Source of the DNA: Octopus vulgaris
Taxonomy: Eukaryota
Assembly (NCBI GenBank): GCA_951406725.2
Contig: OX597820.1
Location: forward strand, 82,646,001-82,710,000
DNA: 64,000 nucleotides
Direction of reading: 5' to 3'
Shown: one piece after another, positions 20,242-57,574 of the stretch
How positions within the stretch are numbered: position 1 is the first letter of the stretch
How the letters are laid out: each line of letters begins with the position of its first letter
Notes under the pieces: model-generated
Databases searched by the model: none
The model's input: only the letters and a program-made list of their open reading frames with translations
Told to the model about the DNA's origin: nothing
Position numbers and translations under genes: made by a program

Positions 20242-20472
20242 GGCGAGCTGGCAGAAACATTAGCATGCCGGGCGAAATGCTTAGTGGTATCTTGTCTGCC
20301 GTTACGTTCTAAGTTCAAATCCCGCCGATGTCGACTTTGCCTTTCATCCTTTCGGGGTCGATAAATTAAGTACCAGTTACATACTGGAGTCGATGTAATC
20401 GACTTAATCTGTTTGTCTGGCCTTGTTTGTCCCCTCTCTGTTTAGCCCCTTGTGGGCAATAAAGAAATAAGA
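20242..20472 (+). mobile_element. tRNA-derived SINE, family B (GGCGAGCTGGCAGAA..GTTCAAATCC..)
   Basis: A/B-box-like head and core GTCGACTTTGCCTTTCATCCTTTCGGGGTCGATAAA, repeated elsewhere in the window (15830, 21350, 25295, 53748, 63210). Confidence 0.88.
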
Positions 20473-25505: not shown

Positions 25506-27565
25506 ACTCATAAGTAATGTTAAATGCCAAACTTTTCACGGTCCTTGTGGCTCCAACGAACAAGGGCATAAACCTGTTTAGTAATAATCAGTGAATGAGA
25601 AAAACGTTTTCTGCTGGATAGCAGTTTAGTGTGTTACGGACATAGAAATGGTTTTTACTTAGCAACGGACGTCAATGAAATACCGCAAGTTATCAATGCT
25701 GTAAATGCTCAAAGTAGTTATTAATAAATTACAGCAACCAAAAATCTAACGGGATAAAAAAGGACAAGAGAAAGCGGTGAAGCCAAACCCAAGTACACAG
25801 CTGATGTTTATTTTATCGAGATTATATGAATGATAAGGGTATTCCTCCTCGGTGGGAATTTGACAATAGAACATATAGCAAAGCTGATGTAAAATATTTC
25901 TTCCGGTTTTTGTTTCTATCATACATTAACGTTTAAAGAATTTTATAGAATTGTAATAAACATGAATTTTATTACAAATATGTAAATGATATAGAAGCAA
26001 GGACATGGTCACGTGTTGGTCAAGTATTAACTTGGAATTGGTATCTTTTATACAGGCCATATATTCTGGCCTATAATATCCATTAAGAGCAATGAATATT
26101 ACGTATCGCATTGTAAATACTTCTAATCCTATGCACGTGTGTATGTTTGTCTTGTCTCTGAACCCAAATTTGATTGAGATAGAAAACAGATCAGAATCAA
26201 GTAAATTCGTTTGTCAAACATCCGTGATCTATTTGGAGAGAACAACAAAAATATTTTAGAGTAAGGTGACACATATTGATTGTTGTATGAAAAAGAAATA
26301 TTGATTTAATTAAAATAAGAATCGAAATAATAAACCACCCATTATCCCTATGTCACTGTCCGGGTTTCCGGCCTGTAACATCGTCCGGATCGATTTTGCA
26401 TTATTATTTCCAGCTCAGAGAAAAATAATGATTTCTTCCTTTGGAACATAGCCAGATATTTCTTGTCCGATAGTATATTCGACTGAATCAATTCCAGTGT
26501 ATACTGTTGCTTCTTTTTCGACTGCAAAGAGTCGAAAACCTATAGATGCCCGTAGTGGCATTTGAACTTAAGATCAAAAAGCATAGAATTAAAGTTGGGG
26601 ATATATTTAGTTCGATACTCTCCAGTTCTAACACATTCTTTTAAAACCGGTAAATAAAGTCGACGTGCTTTATGTCCGGACAACTCACAGTAGAGAAAGT
26701 ACTCGAATACCTATTTCTAGACTTCTTATTCGAATCTGTACAATTTTAGAAGTCCATTGTCATAGCATACCGGTTTGGCTTCATGAACACGTTAAATTAA
26801 AAATTAAAGATTCGCCTTACGGCACATGCAGTCAGTGTGTGGACATTTAATATTATCAAATGAAGTCGGATGTGTACATTACAATGTCTGTAATTCATGA
26901 GATTGGAGAATTTCTGTTTGAAGTCTTAGGATTAGTAAAGTATCTCAACGCAAAATCAGTTTGGTGGAGCCATTATATTCATATAGTAACCCCTATGATT
27001 TTAAAGATGGAACATTTCCTTCCAGTTTTGCTATGAGATAGAAGCAAACATTGAACACGATTTGTTATGCTATATTGTGTGTATTTATAGTTACGCTGAT
27101 AAATCCGTGGATACGATACTGCGCCAGTGGCGAGATACGACCTACCAACCTAATATTTGTAAGCCGATATATCTGCAGATTCGACAACAAGCAAGTCTTT
27201 ATTCTACTTAAAAGAGATGACGCGAAAATTGCGATTAATAATGTAATATATCACTTTGATCAGGGAAGCCATCTTCCCTGGAGACTATTGGAATATATGA
27301 AACTTCAACTATGACAAAGAATTCTGTGAAAGTATTAGGATAAATATATTGAAAATATTCTATATTACATAGGATGTATAAAGATCGATAAAGCAATTGA
27401 TGTTATACATATATGTATATAAATATCTAAAAGGATATGTGCTTGTATATATATACATAGCTACATAGCTATGTAGGTACTAACGTATGTATGAATCTAT
27501 ATATGTCACTTTTAATTTCCATTGTAAAAACAGAAATATTTATGACACAATATCTACAATTTCAG

Positions 27566-27784
27566 AAGATTACTGTGCTGATGGGCATATCTTCAAAGTC
27601 TACCCGTTTGATGCTTGTAGTGAATCGTTCGTGCATTGTGCAAATAACTACAGCTACATCGCAAATTGCCCAGACCATCATTGCATTGACGCAGATATCG
27701 GAATATGTGTGATGTGTGACTGCAATCAGAGCAAGTCAGTAACTGGAACATATGAGAAAAACAAATCAACTTTACGATATGAAG
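27566..27784 (+). CDS. Internal exon encoding a chitin-binding type-2 (CBM14/peritrophin-A-like) domain plus short linker
   Basis: Acceptor caatttcAG and donor GAAG/GTATGT; 219 nt, open, phase 1-1. Peptide EDYCADGHIFKVYPFDACSESFVHCANNYSYIANCPDHHCIDADIGICVMCDC shows the C.DG...C...F..C.........CP...........C CBM14 spacing. Confidence 0.82.
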
Positions 27785-31339: not shown

Positions 31340-33070
31340 GTATATTTAACTTTATGAGCACACCAAAGTCCTCTTTCCATCTTGTTCTTGATTAATTTGC
31401 GTTTTGATGTAAGAATCGGGTAAATTTCGTCGATGCAAAGTTCACATATTTTGTTCCCTATGCTCTAAAATTTTGCTCTGCAAATCAATTCCCACGTAAG
31501 TGTATAGTCCGTATTTTTATCTTTAATCGACCAAATTCGCCTCTTTGTTCTATCCCTGAAGGTATTTTCATGATTAGCTATCCTTCTTTTTATATAATTT
31601 TCTGTAGAACCTATATAGTAGTAATACCGTCCCTCAGATACATCCTTACATCCTTTTTCCTCACAAAAAGAATTTAATGGATATCGTTTTCCTTCGGCGC
31701 AATCGCAAATTTTATTTTTAGTAGCGCTTCCTGTTTTCTTACTAATAATGTTATGCTTGCATTCCATGCTTTCAGAGTTATCCTCAGTATATTTATTTTC
31801 CATGTTTGGAGTCTTTCCCACTAATCTAAGATTATTTACGTTAGTTTGTTTATTACTTTCCTTACTATCTTCTTTGTCATTGTTTTCATTGCCCATCCTA
31901 ATACTTTTATTGGTTTTCTTTTATATTTGTTGTTGCCATTGTTATTATTATTATTTAAATTTATTATATCAGTATTTATATTTATGTTATTAATTTTGTT
32001 GTTAGTATTGTTGATGTTGAGTCTTCTTTTTATAGATTGTATGTTTATGTGTTTAGATCCTAGCGGAGTGTCCTTTAGAATTATTTCCCTACCTTCGTTT
32101 ATCGTACTATTCAAATTTTCGTTGATTTTCTCACCATTTTGGCCATTTAATAATTCTACTCCTATTGTTGTAAAAATCATTTAATCTTTTTGCATTTTGT
32201 GCAGCAATAATTTCTGCTACGTTTGTCGATATGCAAAAACCGGCCCATAATTTGTGTTAGTTTATTATATTTTTTCTCTGAAAACTGCTTATAGACACCT
32301 TTGTAGAATAGTTTCACTATATGAATTCTAATTTTTTTTGCGAAAGGTATTATGAACCATATTACATAATCTTTAGAATGATGTTTAAGGAGGTTCATTT
32401 TATTTATGCATAAGGTGTAATTTTTTTCAGAATTGTTATGTTTAGTTTTTCAATTCCTTCTGTTTCGTGGTTTATTGTCCTATTTTGGTTTATATTTATA
32501 TAGTAATAACTATTATAGTGTTTTATTTTCGACTTCATTTTAATCTTATTATCATTATCCGTTCCTTAATGTTTGCATCTTTGTTATACGTGTTTGATTC
32601 ATTTTCATTCTCCATCTGTTTCTTGATGTGTTTACTTATATTATTCTTATCGGATTTATATTCTGTTCTATCCATATTCTTTTTATTCTTGTATCTATTA
32701 ATTCCTATGTCAATAACTTTATTACGAATCTTGCTTTGTGTATTGTCCGTATTCTCTAATTTTACGCTTGGTCTATAGAATTTTAATTTTTGTTTATGTT
32801 CAGCTTTACTTAGTGTGATATTATAACAATCTATATTGTGTTTAAAAATTACCTCATCTGCAGAGAGACTAGATATTCTTTTAGATATATTTTCAACTAA
32901 TTTTCCTGTAATATTTCTTGTATGGTTACTATTTTTATTAATGTTCCTTATATTAATATTAGGTTTAGAGTAGGGTTTATATTTACCTGTTTCTAGATAA
33001 AGGTTAATGCCCAAGAAGTTAACTGAATTGTGTTCCTTTTCAATAGTGATATAATTCCTATATCGAAAAT
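31340..33070 (-). mobile_element. Penelope-like retroelement remnant (RT thumb, linker, GIY-YIG)
   Basis: Minus ORFs give VNFLGINLYLETGKYKPYSKPN..INKNSNH..ISKRISSLS and VIWFIIPFAK. They also give ICDCAEGKRYPLNSFC..YYIGSTENYIKRRIANHENTF..YTLTWELI and ICELCIDE. Confidence 0.88.
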
Positions 33071-34751
33071 TATGGAAATCTCCATAGCGACAACAGGAAT
33101 TTCAGATGTGTAAAGTTCTAATATTGAAGAGGAACCAACGATAAACACTAGTACATACATACATGAAAAATTTTCAGTATCGTTAATCGATGTTAGTACA
33201 AAACTGGTGTACGCTTGGATAATATATCCCTAAGAAAGAAAAAGTCTTTGTATACAGACTTATATATATATATACAAAGCTATACTTATATGCATATACA
33301 TATACGCATGAACAAACACACACACAACACACACATACACACATACCAGAACAGAATCTAAAGAAACCGGTGTTGGAAGGTGTTGACAAGACTTTATTTA
33401 AGTAACATGTACAAAAAGAGTATAGTGAACTTGCAGTAGGGAATGCAAAACCTAACGTTTAGGGCAGAGTCGCTCAGGGAAAAGTTGACCGAATAGAAAT
33501 TAAAAAGAGATAGTAGAGTTTTGCATCCTTTGTGTTTGTAAAACAGACTGTAACTGATGGGGAATGCAAGATGACATGAGAGAACATCAAGTTGTAGACG
33601 AAGGAAAATTTATAAGAAAGTTAGAAGGGAACAGAATGAGATGGAGAAGCGGCTGAAGGTGGGAGTAAAATAAAAGGAAGAACTGAGATGACAGGGAGTT
33701 GAAGTATAAGAATAGGATTAGTGAACTAAGAGTTAAAGTAAAGTAAAATCAGTTTACTTAGACCTGTTGGTGACTTGGTGCTAACTGAAAAAATCACAGT
33801 TATTAATCAGTTTCGATCGTTTCAATAATCGGTGGAATTGCTACATTCCTCAACTAGCTGGATGATATGTATACACTAAGATTGTGTAAGTCCATGCAAT
33901 TTCAAAAGTAAACCCCAGTCAGTGATATTGTGATGACCGTTAAGAATATATTGCCCTTGTACACAGGCTGATACCGTTATAAATACAGTTGGCGGTCAGA
34001 GCAATGAATCTCATAGCGAGACAATATTTAGGTTGCCATAACAACAGGGGAGCACAAATTAGGGAATCGGTGGTTTCTGATTTGTGTGGAAACTAAGTAA
34101 GCGTATATCTGTTCGTATTGCTGATTCTATTAATACAATCATCTTTATCATTATGTTAACCTACTGCCACACGTTAAGTGATTTTTCTAATTGTATCAAC
34201 CTTGTTGTTTACAATGTGTTTACTAAGTTCATTCTGAAGATAGTTTATTTAGTGTTTACTAGAAACGTCTCCTTTTTGTCTGTCATAATGACATTTATTT
34301 TGGACGTGTATATGTCTAAATCTACAGGAGATAACTTGACTAGGAAAGATATAAAGATATACACACGCACACATACGCATACGTACGCAGATATGCCTGT
34401 ATACCCTTGAGGGTATTGAGAAACGTTCAGTACTGGACATGTAGGTATAATATAGTAAATATGAAGGAAGTTTAGGGAGGAAAAAAAAATTGACAATTAA
34501 AATACTATAACCCCTGATGATTAGATGCGTTATTACTTTAGTCTATCCCTTCTGTGTGCATTATAATAGCATCAAACCCCGTGAAATAAGCGGTGTTTCA
34601 CCTTCACTATTAACCAATCAGCCGAAAAGCGCCATTTTAGTTGTTGTGTGGTATATTCAAAGTTTTAACTCAGGTGTGTGAGCAGTAATTACAGACGTGA
34701 ACCCCATAGTGCGATCTTCAAGAAAATGCAGTTTATATGGTCCAGTTTAGA

Positions 34752-44993: not shown

Positions 44994-45379
44994 GGAAGCA
45001 CTCCGTCGGTTACGATGACGAGGGTTCCGGTTGATCCGAATCAACGGAACAGCCTGCTCGTGAAATTAACGTGTAAGTGGCTGAGTACTCCACAGACACG
45101 TGTACCCTTAACGTAGTTCTCGGGGATATTCAGCGTGACACAGAGAGTGACAAGGCCGGCCCTTTGAAATACAGGTACAACAGAAACAGGAAGTAAGAGT
45201 GAGAGAGAAAGTTGTGGTGAAAGAGCACAGCAGGGATCACCACCATCCCCTGCCGGAGCCTCGTGGAGCTTTAGGTGTTTTCGCTCAATAAACATTCACA
45301 ACGCCCGGTCTGGGAATCGAAACCGCGACCCTACGACCGCGAGTCCGCTGCCCTAACCACTGGGCCAATGCGCCTCCAC
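44994..45379 (-). mobile_element. tRNA-derived SINE, family C, apparently full length and CpG-rich (young)
   Basis: Minus strand starts GTGGAGGCGCATTGGCCCAGTGGTTAGGGCAGCGGACTCGCGGTCGTAGGGTCGCGGTTTCGATTCCC with clear A and B boxes; flanked on both sides by (TACA)n. Confidence 0.85.
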
Positions 45380-45426: not shown

Positions 45427-46768
45427 AAGTGATAAATCTTTTACGTTTTGAGCCTACGCTCTTCAACAGAAAGGAATAAGGGAAAATAAACAGAGATTTA
45501 GCGATCAAGCATTGCGACTGGTTGGGAAAAATAGGTTTGACAGTAGGGGTAGAAAGAAGAGGATATATTAAAGCATTGGTGATCCCCAAACTAAGGTACG
45601 CGTACGTTTAGGTGTATGTGAGAATGTGTATGTGTGTGGATAGGGGATAGTGACTCTAACGTGTGGATGTATGCGTGTGTGTGTGCGTCTGTAATGTGTG
45701 GATGTATGGATGATGGTATGTGTGTATGCAGATGGTGGTGTGGGTGTGGGGATGATGGTGTGTTGGTATGGAGATGATGATGTATGGTGTAGATGTTGGG
45801 AGTTGTCAGTGGTAGTGTATGTGGGATGGTGTGGTGCGATGGTGTGTGATGTGGTGTGGGGGTGGTATGGTTTGGGGGTGTGGGGATGTGGGGGGAGAGT
45901 GTGGCATGGAGGTATGCGGGTAGTGGTGGAGTATGTGAAAGTGGGGTGTGTGGTTGTGTGGTGTGGATGGAGGGAGTATCAAGGATAAGAGAAGGTGGGT
46001 AGGAGTGAGGATAGGAAGTAGGTGTTGGAGGAAGAGAAGAGAGAAGAGATGGGTAGGAGCGAAGTGAGGAAGAGAAGAAGGTGAAGAGAAGAGGAGAATT
46101 GAGCTCATGTGGCGCGAAATTGCGAAGAGAGAAGACTAATTCCTGTTCACAATGAGGTTGGGAGTTCAGATGCAAAGACAATCCGAACACAGACAAGTGT
46201 TGTAGTGAATGACCAGTAGAGTGGAAATGGCGCGAGACCGAGGTGTCATTGTCGAACCGGTCAGCCAATCCGCATCCCGTTTGGCCAACATACAGAGAAA
46301 GGCAGAAAGAGCAGGAGATGCAGTAAATGACGTTGCTAGAAGTGCAGGTAAAGGAGTCGGTGATATGATAGGGACGATGATGGGTGCCCGTGAGGATGGT
46401 AGTTCTGGAGAGGTAGGGACAAGTGCGGCAGCGTGGGCGGGAGCAGAGGAATGAGCCAGGTTCCAAAGATGGGGGTTAGGGATGAAACTGTAGAGCAGGA
46501 GGTCACGCTGGTTATGGGCTCGTTTGAAGGAGGGAAGGGGTAGTGTAGAGAAGATTTTCGAGATGGAGGGGTGGTATTGGAGTCGCCGGAAGGCTCGGGA
46601 AAGGATGCGTTCTAGGGGCAGGGTGGAGGAGTAATATGTGAGGGGAAAGGGGAGACGAGTAACGGCTTGGCGGGTGCGGAGAGAGAGAGCAGATGTACAG
46701 TACACGGAACGTGCTCTGGTGAGAGCTGTGTGGATAGCAGTGAGGGGGATATCCACGAAAGTCTCATC

Positions 46769-46770
<2 letters not shown>
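45425..46770 (-). mobile_element. Penelope-like element 3' part (linker + GIY-YIG + low-complexity 3' UTR + decayed hammerhead)
   Basis: Minus ORFs RLPFPLTYYS..SFKRAHNQRDLL and CSRPRCRTCPYL..FTCTSSNVIYCISCSFCLSLYVGQTG..LADRF..HFHSTGH..EQELVFSL..PHELN. The 3' end 45438-45473 reads CUUU CUGUUGA A GAGC guag GCUC AAAA CGUA AAAG. Confidence 0.9.
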
Positions 46771-46818
<48 letters not shown>

Positions 46819-49619
46819 AGATATATATTAATGTGTCTCACATCTATGTGAGTGATTTGTCATGAAGTACCAAGATTTTCGTTTTCTTTTTACTTCAGAT
46901 CAATTAAGGAGTTGAAATTCTTAGCTTTCAGGTCAATTTTCAGATTATTTAAAACAGTATTTTTCCAAGTGCACAACCCAGCATCAGTGACAATGTATGC
47001 ACTCTGCATACTTTATACTATCAATATTTACATCAACATCACGAATTTTCAACACCGTTTTTAAGAGGTCGGCTTAATTTGGTCTATACAAAACATTCCC
47101 CGATACAAAATATTTACTCACACACCTATAGACATTACAACAGTTTGGAGTTGGCTTCGCGTCGAAACTAATTTCTTCAAGGAATTCTTCCTTTAATAGC
47201 TTTTACAGTTAACAATAATTCTGAAAATAGAAATGGAAAATATCTGTTAAGTAGTTTTTATTATAAATTCAGTTGTTTCCTCAGGGTATTTCTCTTGTTG
47301 CTGTATTATATTACTATATTTAGGTGGTTCCTGTTGAGCATGATTTGCTTCAGCTTATGTTGTTCTCATGTAAGATACCTTCCATTAAAAGTTTTTAAAC
47401 ATTTCTATTGCTATCATTTGATACACATTGATGGGCACTTACTTTATATGTCTACACATGACACACACACACGCTCTCTCTCTCTCTCTGTCTCACACGC
47501 ACCAAAGATTTTAACTAATTACAAAATATAATAGCATGAAATGTTTCTGAATAATTTCAAAATACAATTCATGATATAGTCATAGATTTCTTCTTTCCAG
47601 TTTCAGCTTTAATTGATATCTTCAGTGTCACTAAATATTTTACCTAATTTCAAAGTAAAATGGCATTAATTGTTTTCACATAATTCCATAATATATAGAT
47701 ATAAAAAAATTCACTCACAGATTTTTCTTATAGACAATTCTATGTGATGTTTCCATTACTACGGAATACCAATTATACCGAGAGTATTGAAATGGTGGGT
47801 AATTAAAAAATGCATTTAATTTCGCCCGATATTCATTAATAAATTACATTTTTTCATGTTTCCTCGTTATTGTTCTTTTGTTGAATCTCCATACTAGTAT
47901 AGGAAGAAAATTGTCAAATCCGGCAATACTGATTCCTCACAATTATCTACCGGGCATTTTCTCGTGTAAGAGTTTAATTTGTTGGCAGCTTACTTTCACA
48001 TTTCTATAGACTGTCAGACAAGTTAATCTTCGCATATCAAAATATATATTAAATTTTCGAAAAATTATCCTTTTATTTTAAGGGAATCTATTTATATGTA
48101 GAATTGAGAAAATTCTAATAAATGATATACAGTTTGGTCGGCTGCTTTTATTGTGTCTTACAGTCATAGATTTTATATACAGCTTGTATATGCATGCGTA
48201 TAATTTTTATAGAATTTACTCTTTCTCTTAATGATTGGATGTTTCTTTCTAACTTTTTTACCTATTGGCTGCAAAGTAACATAAGTAAGTTTTGGTGACG
48301 GCATAACTTCTTTTCCATATTCATTATTTGTCTCAAGAAGTTCCTGAGTATCTATTTGTTTCACACTTGGAAATCAATATTGATTAAATTCAAGGGGTAA
48401 TTTATACGCTATAATCTCTTTTTAAATGATCTGAGACCATTGTGCAAATTCGGTCTGCTAACTTATATGAGCTGTTGACTCGAAAATGCTTGGGTGGACT
48501 AAGTAAAAAGGATATGTTATTTTGAGTTAATATCTTTATTGTGCATGTATTCATACATACACGCACACATATAACACACACACTTACACGTTTCTAATTC
48601 ATTATTTCCTTTTATCTCGAATAGAGTGGCCAAGTGATTAGGGCGTTGGGCTTACGATCATATGCCCATGGGTCTGATTCTTGAACTGGGAAGAAAGATG
48701 TGCCTTGCGCGAGGCACTTCTTTTCCAGTTGCTTCAGTCACCTCAGCTAAAGGGGAGTTCTAACCTGATGTTGCCGCAACTTTCTCTCTATATAATTGTT
48801 ACATCTTTGATATTTCCATAACAGAATGATTGAAGGGCTGAGAGGAAATGAATTTCTGATGGCGAGTAGATAGGCATCTTACATGCATTAAGTGAAAACA
48901 TGTTACTCGTTACCAAGCCTTATTAGACATTTGTTTTCTATATCAATGTAAAGAAGATTGTAAATTTCCTTTCAAATAACTATTGAAACTATTTCCACGT
49001 TTGTGAGGATCCTTAATTTATGATATCCCAAAACTAATTTCGCATAAGTTGATGCAGCTTTTCTATTCATAGTTGTCGATAGCTATCTCACTGATCATAA
49101 AGTAGTCGTTCGCTAAAAGATACTGAAATATATCTATAGTAATTTCACACCAACACTGTTTATTAGTTCATAGTTCACCAGTAAACGAATCTAATCAGCA
49201 TTTGATTGTTTGGAGTTTGTAATTGTGTGTGATATTGACATATATGATTATAGGTATGGTAATATCACACACTATATATAGGTATTTTCGTTCTTAGTGT
49301 TTCGTAGATGTTTCAGGGTATCAAGATCATCTCTCATAATAGTATGTGCATGTTCCAAGAAATATTTTAATACAGTGTCTAGAAAATTACTTAAGTGTTG
49401 TGCCTCACATATCAGGCCTGCAATGGGCCTCAAATTTAGATAATTTGACGTGGTTATATTCGCGTAACTGCTCCATATATATTCTCATACTTCAGTAACT
49501 AATTTATGTACATTTTGTTAGTACATAGATTAATCCACACATTATCATACAAATTCTCAATATAAAACTAGTAAATTCTATTGTTTATATAAAATACATA
49601 AAAGTAAATTGATTCTTGA

Positions 49620-54079: not shown

Positions 54080-54770
54080 CAGTGTGCGATGGGTAAATTG
54101 TCGCCATTTTATATTTTTAATTTCGTGCATGCACATTGTTTTTGATTTTGTCGTCTACACAATATAGTAGGGTCAGTTGGGTACCGTCTGTGAAAAAAAA
54201 ACCAGCACCATGACGCAGTTCATTCTGCTAGAAATTTGGAAATAGCATGCTGTACTGCTTGGAAGCTCCTATACGAACAGCATCCAGTCAACATCATGGT
54301 GTTTGGAGTGATCACTAGTGATGGCGAAGTTATGTCTACATACGTCTTCCTACATAACCTCAGACTCAACACGGAAGCCTACATTAAATGCCTGAAGGAC
54401 AACCCAGTCATGGCTGTGAGACAATTTCTGCAACTACATCACCCCTAACATCTGGCCACCTAACTCCCCAGCCTGCAACCCCCTTGATTATTATGTGTGG
54501 AGTGCAGTTGAGCGAGAGACCCACAAAACTCCTTGTAACTGATGAACTGAAGGCAAAGGAGTATGGCAGCATTCACCAACTTAACAAGGAGACCATCCAG
54601 AAGAGTTGTAAGAGAGTCCGAAGTTGTCTGGAGGCCGTGGTTGAAGCCAATGGCGATTTTATGAATACAGTTACTCTTTAGTAATTCAAGATATTTTTAT
54701 GTAATTTCGGTAGATATATCTGTTAAAATGAGATGTCAGTGTTAACTTCATTTTTCATAGCTTGTACGAC
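54080..54770 (+). mobile_element. Internally deleted Tc1/mariner-superfamily element
   Basis: Begins TA-CAGTGTGCG; peptides HPVNIMVFGVITSDG..LNTEAYIKCL, WPPNSPACNPLDYYVWSAVE and RSCLEAVVEANGDF. Confidence 0.85.
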
Positions 54771-54835
54771 TCTCTTTTGATACCAGTCTTGCGATCATAA
54801 GTGCAACACCCTAACCATTCAGCGAATTGGATATA

Positions 54836-54873
<38 letters not shown>

Positions 54874-54885
54874 TAACACAATATA

Positions 54886-54922
54886 TGTTTAACACAAGAA
54901 CACAAGGCATCACCTGGTCCAG

Positions 54923-54991
<69 letters not shown>

Positions 54992-55474
54992 AAAGTCAGA
55001 ATGCGATAAATTAAAATTAATTATTATCGCTGGTGTTTCTAGCACAGGCCATATATTATTCATATATAAGTGCATTAAAGGGCGAAGTATGTACTAGATA
55101 CACAGAAGCTTGATAAATTTAGTGAAATGAAAATAAAAACTTTTACTAACTCGGTTCTTCTTAGACTGCAGTTTCGCCTATTTCAGCAATAAAAATAATA
55201 TTTATTTACTCAGGTAGGCTCTTCAGTAAGATTCCTGTTATTATGAGATCGCACCTCGATAGACACATGTGCGTCTACTGATTTGCTCTTTCTAACTAAT
55301 CAGATCACTGCGCAGACGCAGAACGTACCCGACAAACTAGGGATTTCTGGTATATAGTCTAACGCTCAAAATTTATCGAGAAATATGTAAACAAAGTCAG
55401 AATGCGATAAATTAAAATTAATTATTATTTATTATCGCTGGACCAGGTGATGCCTTGTGTTCTTGTGTTAAACA
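54886..55474 (-). mobile_element. Small non-coding hammerhead-containing element (mini-PLE / retrozyme-like cassette)
   Basis: Perfect 37-bp inverted repeats at 54886-54922 and 55438-55474; ~47-bp direct repeats starting at 54987 and 55388 (401-bp period); canonical hammerhead inside; (AT)n at the left junction. Confidence 0.7.
55159..55231 (-). ncRNA. Canonical type I hammerhead ribozyme
   Basis: Minus strand: UCUUA CUGAAGA GCCUA [34 nt] UAGGC GAA AC ugca GU C UAAGA. All core nucleotides are present, stems I and II are perfect, stem III is the palindrome ACUGCAGU, and the cleavage triplet is GUC (predicted cut between 55164 and 55163). Confidence 0.88.
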
Positions 55475-55639
55475 CTACATTTCAAGATACTCCAGTTCGC
55501 TTAGCTGACAAAAATGAGTAATACTGTGACAGACTGGTGTCCTCTCCGGGGCGGGCGCAATATACTTGCCAGAAAATGCGGGAAACTGGCCTTATGAACC
55601 TATGGCTCGCAAAAGAACTTTATCCATTATACAAATGGA

Positions 55640-56050
55640 TGTATCAATGGACTGGAAACTAACTGGGACACCTCCTTGAAAACTTTAGTCGAACAAATCG
55701 ACTCCACTATTTATTTTTTAAAGCCTAGTACTAATTCTATTGGACTTTTTTCTAAGTTACGCAAATATAAAGAAACCAGCACCAGTTTCAAGCGGTTGTG
55801 GAGGAAGAGGACAAAGAAAAACACATACGCACAGGCGCACGCACACAGATACACACACACACACACTCACACACACACATGTATATGACAGGTTTCCATA
55901 CAATTTACGACCATCACATTCCCTAACAAAGCATTGGTAGACTCAGCACTATAGTGAAAGCCAGTTTCCAGAGGTGCCGTGTAGCGGGACTGAATCAGAA
56001 TCTACGTGGATGCAAAGCTGGCTTCTTAATTTAACAACTATGCCTGCGTC
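55640..56050 (-). mobile_element. SINE family A copy (diverged)
   Basis: Same order of motifs as 8893-9243 and 50675-51040 (TTTAGTCGAACAAATCGAC..CTAGTACT.ATTCTAT..GGGACTGAA). Confidence 0.75.
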
Positions 56051-57374
56051 TTGTGTATGCTGTCAACAGTAGCGAAGCACCTAATATGTTTGATTGAACA
56101 ATATTTCATTAACACTACGAAATCAAATTAATTTTGTTTTTAAATTATTTCTATATTTCAATGAAGTAAAATGTTAAGTCTGTTTAACCCTTTGGGTGTG
56201 CTAATTAATGTTGGAACATATCATTGAAGTTGTAACAAAATAATCGTTGAAAAATAAATTCAATTTGTAGGCGACTTGGTTGTGATAATTATATCTCACC
56301 TATTGATAATTTGTCACTCATCATACTTTCGGCAAATCACTTGTAAATGACGTCCGTAATTAAAAAAATTAATTATAGGACAGTTTATATGTGGTTGTAT
56401 ATTAGTGCTTTGTTTTATCGAATTTGAAAAGGTGAAAGACAAAAGCCATAACAGTTTGATTCTTTTACACAAGATTTAGGGAAAATTATTAAACTGTGGA
56501 GTATTTAGCAATATGTATTGTTTATTATCAAGTCACAACTGTAAGATAAAAAGTAAATGGATATTTGTGTTGTATGCATAAGAGAAATCTTCATTGCTGT
56601 TTGGATAGTATATTGTTGTAGTTGTAGTTCTGTCACATACCCCGAACTTCATGTTTGCTTTGTATGTAATAAGAAAATTCATCTGGTACAAAGTGTCCTT
56701 TATTAATGGGTTTACTTTAAATTGTCTGTTGCATAAGTCTGTTGTTTTAGTGGCTCCAGCATTTTGTGTTCTCCCCCGCATTTAGTTGTAAGTATCTTAA
56801 TTATCTGTTTGCAGTGAGGTAGGGGGATGGATGTTTTAAGAACGTTGACTAGTGGAAGAGAGTCGCCCCGCCATCATGTAGAGTAAATAGGCTGTTTTTA
56901 TATAATATATCTAAACACAAACGATGTAATAGTAACCCTAATCTTCTGATCTATATTCATTTAGTGGTGTTTCTGAAGAGGACAACACTAACTAATAATA
57001 AAAAAAAATTCCTCGTTCAATTACAAAATTCATGAAGTCTCCTGCACTGAGTTTCACTTCCAAGTGCTTTTGTATAATATAGTTTCTCTTTTAGAATATA
57101 AGTTCTTACTTCTTTATCTATTATTTCTGTAAACACTAGATTTTATCTACAAAAGCTCTACGCATTTTAAAAGAATTAGAACTTTAAAAATATCTGATGT
57201 TATAAATATCACTGTATCTCATGAACAATCGTGGTAATTGAAATTTGAAAATCCTGATAAGCGTAATACTTGAATCTACAAACTTTTATTTTTAAGTTTG
57301 ATGTTAAACTTCGATAATTTTTGCTTCTTCAATGAATCCAAATTATTTCATTTTCTGTTTTCTTTTATTTTCAG

Positions 57375-57574
57375 ATTGTTTCTTCGAATGCTCTTGTATT
57401 GCCGGAGGAACAGACTTTGATCATGCAGCTATTAGAGGAAATTGCACTCATTACGTATACTGCTACGGTGAAAGCGAACATGTGATAGCTTGTCCGAATG
57501 GATATTTTTATAACTACAAATCAGAACAAGGAACAATCCCATGTGAAAGAACAGCTGACAACTGTAGCCCTTAA
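57375..57574 (+). CDS. Terminal exon encoding a chitin-binding type-2 (CBM14) domain, ending in TAA
   Basis: Strong acceptor ttttctgttttcttttattttcAG, phase 1. Peptide DCFFECSCIAGGTDFDHAAIRGNCTHYVYCYGESEHVIACPNGYFYNYKSEQGTIPCERTADNCSP* has the NC..Y..C.........CP.G.FY CBM14 signature. Confidence 0.88.

Follow-up and report, generated by a model that had tools for sequence, protein, structure and literature searches.

A hammerhead-bearing 401-nt repeat of Octopus, likely a PLE-carried retrozyme, flanked by inverted copies of host SINE DNA

Repeats that carry hammerhead ribozymes and are associated with PLEs are widespread. With 235 hammerhead-1 loci counted in the giant squid as well (PMC6962438), the motif alone is ordinary. 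Metazoan non-LTR retrozymes, which derive from the pLTRs of PLEs according to Li et al. (10.64898/2026.07.22.740005), are described as families of 350-390 bp in mussels and of 330 and 350 bp in the axolotl (PMC7229834; 10.64898/2026.07.22.740005), and one of nine predicted Xenopus elements cleaved (Li et al., 10.64898/2026.07.22.740005), so that activity should not be taken for granted. For a PLE protein, cleavage of both strands in AT-rich DNA is described, as is a start of reverse transcription at a stem-loop within the RNA, by which a tail is left (PMC11167929). Octopus has candidate movers: the supplement of PMC8557442 contains a complete consensus of a (TA)n-targeting, hammerhead-bearing Hydra-clade PLE from Octopus bimaculoides, Hydra-1_Obim, and 31 recently active PLE families are reported for O. 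vulgaris (PMC13282606). No description of an octopus retrozyme family was found in the literature, although the repeat libraries (Repbase, Dfam, O. vulgaris), which lay outside this search, may already contain the family.

The locus described here lies in a 64-kb window, the whole stretch of Octopus DNA that was analysed. We lean towards the reading that it is a single-hammerhead copy, about 1.1 units long, of a high-copy, ORF-less Octopus repeat of about 401 nt, likely a non-LTR retrozyme carried by PLEs, and that its inverted repeats are host SINE DNA, probably duplicated by fold-back of cDNA. That the copy works like, and probably descends from, a non-LTR retrozyme family we consider fairly probable. 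It is a real, well-formed added member of the known PLE/retrozyme-type hammerhead repeats, with an anatomy that corrects the preliminary description. With non-LTR retrozymes it shares the type I hammerhead, a unit size of a few hundred nt, a low GC content, the absence of an ORF and thousands of copies (PMC7229834), and as an insert it resembles the dispersed monomers described as a category of retrozymes (Li, Clavereau & Pollet 2026, 10.64898/2026.07.22.740005). Active retrozymes differ in comprising two units, whereas this monomer-type insert has one hammerhead; monomer release by double cleavage is therefore precluded at the locus, and the copy is not classified as an active retrozyme. It also departs from the retrozymes in the 34-nt insert of stem II, in the TA tract and the rearrangement of its target, and in the lack of a target-site duplication.

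The type I hammerhead motif occupies 55159-55231 on the minus strand, with a predicted cleavage site after 55164, a long AU-rich extension of stem II and a minimal, palindromic stem III. The conserved core, the GAAA, a UH cleavage triplet and stems I-III are present in the order of a type I ribozyme. Stem I (55231-55227 with 55163-55159; 5 bp) is followed by the core (55226-55220) and by stem II (55219-55215 with 55180-55176; 5 bp), which has a 34-nt insert; the alignment with RF00163 shows a 32-nt insert in loop II. The GAAA is located at 55175-55172 and the cleavage triplet at 55166-55164, while within an 8-nt palindrome stem III is formed by 2 bp and a tetraloop. Strict and relaxed type I scans of both strands of the 64 kb found this match and no other. 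The RF00163 model is covered in all 45 of its 45 positions with an E value of 1.8e-5, but the score of 30.6 bits falls short of the gathering threshold of 34 bits, at which the Rfam scan yielded no matches; that threshold is a curation cut-off and not a mechanistic criterion. In the predicted minimum fold of the monomer (-15.4 kcal/mol) the hammerhead is not formed, and enforcing it (-9.5) costs about 6 kcal/mol. Of the earlier claim that the ribozyme is a fully canonical type I hammerhead, the type, position and strand stand, whereas "fully canonical" is generous given the minimal stem III and the different minimum fold of the monomer. The further proposal that the palindromic stem III favours a dimer is supported by folding predictions, according to which two molecules would pair through the palindrome in an 8-bp duplex of -11.1 kcal/mol. 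The predicted minimum of the co-fold uses this palindrome pairing, but stem I is not formed in it. Judged from these models, dimeric action of the hammerhead is plausible, and a weak stem III with a palindromic tetraloop is likewise described for the axolotl HHR_Amex1, itself better as a dimer.

The hammerhead forms part of an inserted, ORF-less element of 34% GC (54987-55441, minus strand), which repeat structure and family depth delimit as one 401-nt unit plus a terminal redundancy. The direct repeats reported to start at 54987 and 55388 and to contain a hairpin were confirmed; their left edges are 401 nt apart, which together with the redundancy supports the description of a copy of about 1.1 units. 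The 3' copy (54987-55033, minus strand; 47 nt) is tail-like and leads into the TA tract. The 5' copy (55388-55441, minus strand; 54 nt) has a 7-bp hairpin with 7 extra nt in its loop, and its last 4 nt (55438-55441) are common to the host flank and constitute a microhomology. No ORF had been seen, and none was found: the longest ATG frame, unit junction included, encodes 36 aa and the longest stop-free frame 42 aa. A coding role for the unit was accordingly rejected. In size, GC content and lack of an ORF the unit lies within the bounds given for retrozyme units (about 150-450 bp, GC under 45-50%, no ORF). Retrozyme circles are, however, described as highly self-paired, whereas the circular fold of this unit is not strongly so (MFE -83.9, z -1.57, 4 of 60 shuffles equally good; z -2.25 for the linear 455-nt fold). 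At the 3' end of the element lies a (TA)31 tract (54927-54988), either a target microsatellite or a copied tail. The statement that the unit sits in (AT)n holds for this end and for a stretch farther left (54831-54869) but not for the right side. Upstream of the hammerhead, at 55270-55330, CCAAT-like and TGCGCA-type words occur in bins of high family depth. They resemble promoter motifs and may, we presume, mark an internal promoter.

No further copy of the 401-nt unit was found within the window, but copies abound elsewhere. Of 24 public sequencing runs listed, 20, from 10 studies and five coded organisms, contained part of the stretch, and four were aligned to 54986-55760 at 85% likeness, among them X1 (from organism A; about 76% of it read) and X3 (from organism B). 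No read of the RNA run X22, of which about 12% was read, aligned, a result that carries no weight. Relative to the single-copy bin 55636-55661, the unit's 16 bins had a median summed contig depth of 1,641x in X1 (range 86-4,733x) and of 1,020x in X3 (143-3,137x), values that give an order of magnitude and not a copy number. The unit thus belongs to a high-copy family in two other species, about 1,000-fold above the single-copy flank, and the existence of other genomic copies is confirmed. A 242-nt contig from organism C (X4, record 17; a run of unknown kind with 2 records and an organism possibly related to the source of the window) covers 55234-55475 with 1 difference, spans the right junction and continues for 38 letters beyond it. 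Among substitutions with a share of at least 10%, none is listed within the hammerhead (55159-55231) in X1 or X3 whereas 10 sites are listed just upstream, at 55232-55280; the listing rests on contigs at least 85% alike. At 55176 a loose end in X1 leads into three contigs with a variant stem II/loop II arm, which points to a subfamily distinguished by its stem II. No exact-pattern match to the family turned up in the collections metagenome_contigs, viral_contigs and genome_contigs. A looser hammerhead pattern matched 30-31 nt in 19 viral contigs of IMG/VR (L001-L019) with the same stem II letters and a short loop II, and one of them, L005, has two hammerhead-like cores 556 nt apart; these matches are taken as generic cores.

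Is the family one of discrete units, or is the copy the truncated end of a longer element? The contigs listed (records 1-7 and 9-14), beyond which 4,559 further pieces exist, tile 54994-55391 without a break, and the depth does not decay towards the 5' end (68-83k at 55350-55401), although at the step from 55387 into the direct repeat continuity is supported by a bin mean and by one contig that overhangs by 4 nt. A profile this flat is unlike a pile of randomly 5'-truncated ends. The main rival to the retrozyme-like reading is nevertheless that the locus represents the truncated end of an autonomous hammerhead PLE, a solo pseudo-LTR plus tail in partial tandem, the 401-nt period having been made afresh here and the arms being host-derived all the same. 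Most PLE insertions are truncated at the 5' end, form partial tandems, have tails and favour microsatellites (PMC8557442; PMC11167929), and among the four aligned runs no tandem or circular joint was reported, the contigs being short. The match of records 1 and 9, moreover, ends at 54994, beyond which they have 8 and 25 differing letters; a tandem neighbour of the same variant would not produce this. The order of promoter-like motifs, hammerhead and U-rich tract within the unit also matches what we take to be the layout of a pLTR. Against such a truncated end stand the roughly flat family depth, which includes the 5' end and the bin entering the direct repeat, the presence of the same hairpin repeat at both ends of the copy, and the absence of a branch into an ORF among the 14 loose ends listed (403 more exist). 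We therefore regard it as unlikely, though not negligible, and continue with the retrozyme-like reading.

Whichever the source, the insertion itself bears the marks of PLEs. Hammerheads are present in the non-coding terminal regions, pseudo-LTR or tail, of canonical EN+ PLEs of the Hydra, Neptune and Penelope/Poseidon clades (PMC8557442, PMC11167929, PMC3846280), and the ends described for PLEs share with this locus the (TA)n at the 3' junction, a short terminal redundancy around a stem-loop and a 5' microhomology. The (TA)31 tract, the redundancy of 47-54 nt and the 4-nt microhomology add up to the signature of a PLE insertion and support, as likely, the earlier proposal that PLE machinery was the mover. 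By analogy, the hairpin-bearing redundancy may be the equivalent of the PLE stem-loop tail, which is described as shorter (30-40 nt). In contrast to PLE ends, the unit has no RT/GIY-YIG ORF attached to it, nor was one found beside it, and the locus is no autonomous EN+ PLE; its hammerhead stems also differ from the motif given for Hydra-1_Obim in File S2 of PMC8557442. Nine motifs of the unit had no match in the supplement on PLEs of PMC8557442, and four had none in that of PMC13282606.

PLE-like remnants do exist in the window, at least 8 kb from the unit. Ten comparisons of the unit with their flanks gave none above shuffles, none of 802 candidates in a search with one remnant proved to be a homologue, and five remnant frames had no meaningful Pfam match. 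Neither these comparisons nor the search of the PMC8557442 supplement connected the unit with a particular PLE. The frames at 45591-46837 (minus strand) we take, from resemblance and with no Pfam match, to be a GIY-YIG/RT-like PLE remnant. Just 3' of them, at 45438-45470 (minus strand), lies a degenerate, minimal-hammerhead-like motif with both core halves mutated. Broken frames at 557-1036 and 31465-33101 (both minus strand) contain motifs that by eye resemble the Hydra-1_Obim protein in the supplement of PMC8557442; one of them was the query of the homologue search.

The preliminary description had the element wrapped in inverted repeats of its own. The repeats are indeed perfect, with 37 of 37 positions identical between 54886-54922 and 55438-55474 and no extension in either direction, but they do not belong to the element. 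The right arm (55438-55474, plus strand) is host flank, where the body of a tRNA-derived SINE begins. Records 8 (X1) and 15 (X3) match 55438-55758 with 91% identity at single-copy depths of 19.5 and 39.4; both begin to match exactly at 55438 and have 40 unlike letters beyond it. In these two species the orthologous locus therefore has the arm without the element. The left arm (54886-54927, minus strand) is an inverted duplicate of the right flank, comprising the 37 bp and a further 5 nt, which the right junction lacks; since the arms are identical in 37 of 37 positions, the duplication is recent. That the arms are true TIRs, so that a MITE-like or composite element has captured the hammerhead unit, might be argued from their bracketing the unit without a mismatch and from the inverted pLTR copies that can flank PLE insertions (PMC8557442; PMC3846280). 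The arms of such described PLEs are element-derived, however, whereas here they derive from the target: two other species have the right arm at single-copy depth but not the element, the arm continues the B box and body of a SINE, the arm depth is 2-10k compared with 14-130k across most of the unit, and the sequences beyond the two arms differ, so that no target-site duplication is present. A MITE/TIR element, largely refuted by the contigs of the two species, was rejected as very improbable. A Helitron-like element was rejected by reasoning from the hammerhead and the TA junction.

On the right, the rest of the SINE body extends over 55475-55625 (plus strand) and is multi-copy, as indicated by the depth at 55480-55557 and by loose ends at 55542. 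Its head is found to the left of the element, lying inverted (54775-54830, minus strand): the reverse complement contains an A-box match with 1 mismatch and an anticodon-arm-like stem, and the B box is split at the breakpoint. When the head is joined to the right flank via the base beside the left arm, a B-box match with 1 extra base arises that is absent from either piece with its real neighbour; the A- and B-box consensus used for this assignment is one that we assumed. The joined query aligns with a paralogue at 48629-48758 across the join with an E value of 2e-4, compared with 0.19 and 0.29 for the halves alone and 0.1 with the head in the wrong orientation, and the pairwise score of 77 exceeds those of 500 shuffles, the highest of which is 60.5. 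The other candidate, at 45266-45369 (minus strand), is weak: its E value is 0.72, and its score equals that of the top shuffle. ARAGORN found no tRNA in the window, nor in the joined head and flank with the boundary 2 nt off. Because joining head and flank yields both the B box and the paralogue match, the target was a tRNA-derived SINE broken in its B box, and the joined flank has the A and B boxes, the tRNA-like head and the multi-copy body of such a SINE. After the break the body remained on the right, the head came to lie inverted on the left, and 42 nt adjoining the break were duplicated in inverted orientation (54886-54927). At the outer junction (54870-54885, minus strand) the beginning of the left arm has been copied again as a 12-nt templated stretch (54870-54881), accompanied by 4 nt of TA. 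Further SINE-like repeats occur at 20278, 48629, 58804 and 55663-55796 (plus strand) and at 45368 and 51045 (minus strand), four of them recognised by spaced A- and B-box matches. Beside the rearrangement lies a frameshifted transposase remnant (54080-54770, plus strand), which from its transposase motifs we take to be Tc1/mariner-like. Its right end seems to be cut off by that breakpoint, where 4-5 nt of the expected repeat are left, a weak observation.

The arrangement is best read as the result of target-primed reverse transcription, with the inverted repeats as a scar of insertion and not as termini. As source RNAs we envisage multimers or circles of the unit, which the hammerhead would have cleaved in dimeric form by way of the stem III palindrome. 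A PLE endonuclease/RT would have broken the target inside the B box of the SINE, beside AT-rich DNA. As the RNA corresponds to the minus strand, the cDNA would grow from left to right on the plus strand, and since the left arm, the spacer and the TA tract represent the opposite strand of the right flank, the primer would come from the right-hand fragment. Its 3'-OH would prime cDNA that copies first the TA tract and then one unit plus about 50 nt, so that the terminal redundancy would be the trace of a template longer than one unit. The 3' end of the cDNA would then anneal via the 4-nt microhomology (55438-55441) to its own priming strand and re-copy the flank, which would create the order arm, TA, element, arm in one step and leave identical 37-nt sequences, oppositely oriented, to the left and right. 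The flap at the other broken end, SINE head and upstream TA, would have been inverted and patched through TA with the 12-nt templated insert.

Parts of this scheme have counterparts in other retrotransposons. R2 cDNA snaps back onto itself or onto nearby target DNA (PMC11371274), and for L1 inversion of the target, inverted duplication, templated inserts and hairpins formed by self-annealing of cDNA are described (PMC11702581). The fold-back primed by microhomology, the inverted flap at the reciprocal end and the short templated insert resemble such non-canonical TPRT; the R2 and L1 cases were engineered or somatic events in human cells, whereas here both outcomes occur at one site in a genomic PLE-type insertion of an invertebrate. 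For PLEs, our literature search found no report of a flank-derived inverted duplication or fold-back outcome. Alternatively, ordinary TPRT may have ended in joining by microhomology, and the left arm and the inverted SINE head would stem from separate repair or from an artefact of long-read assembly in TA-rich DNA. Microhomology at 5' junctions is known for PLEs (PMC3846280), TA tracts are fragile and hard to assemble, and the aligned contigs cover 54986-55760, to the right of the left-hand rearrangement (54775-54927). Arguing against this possibility is the finding that the inner end of the left arm, the break in the SINE and the 5' junction of the element coincide within 5 nt, for which one event suffices while two need a coincidence. 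We consider separate events rather improbable and retain fold-back of the cDNA as the preferred explanation.

Because the target is a recognisable SINE it can be reconstructed, and the locus bears on how PLE insertions are completed. It is also a warning for annotation, as inverted repeats that flank such units may be perfect without being termini, and an octopus family of this abundance would make it easy to test for retrozyme circles in cephalopods. More speculatively, and with much doubt, Octopus may harbour a family of thousands of self-cleaving circular RNAs of about 400 nt, the monomers of which enter TA-rich DNA; PLE insertion might often end by snap-back of the cDNA, many apparent TIRs would then be scars, and PLE activity would cause local inversions in cephalopod genomes.

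The element is located within a gene on the plus strand. A frame of the window at 22117-22443 matches proteins labelled Octopus vulgaris (99% identity), O. sinensis (97%) and O. bimaculoides (93%), the 3 matches among 34 candidates, and four exons were mapped from the Octopus homologues by matches of more than 60% identity. In two of the three homologues, the longer proteins, the last two exons are 27559-27783 and 57362-57571, with GT and AG ends, and this exon mapping makes 27786-57374 (plus strand) the last intron, of about 29.6 kb, of the longer isoforms of a CBM14-domain gene. The gene had been called an Ig/CBM14 gene with the element antisense in its last intron. The antisense intronic position is upheld, and the intron is the last one in two of three homologues; Pfam recognised CBM_14 and SEA, both below the cut-off, and gave no match to an Ig family. 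Cleavage of the host pre-mRNA by the hammerhead was rejected, the motif being antisense. With one ribozyme, and antisense to the host pre-mRNA, the copy is a dead end, and no effect on the host gene is predicted. The third homologue terminates earlier, at 32204-32257 (plus strand), and this terminal exon of one predicted isoform falls within the span of an antisense PLE-like remnant; it may be an artefact of the gene model or a case of exonisation.
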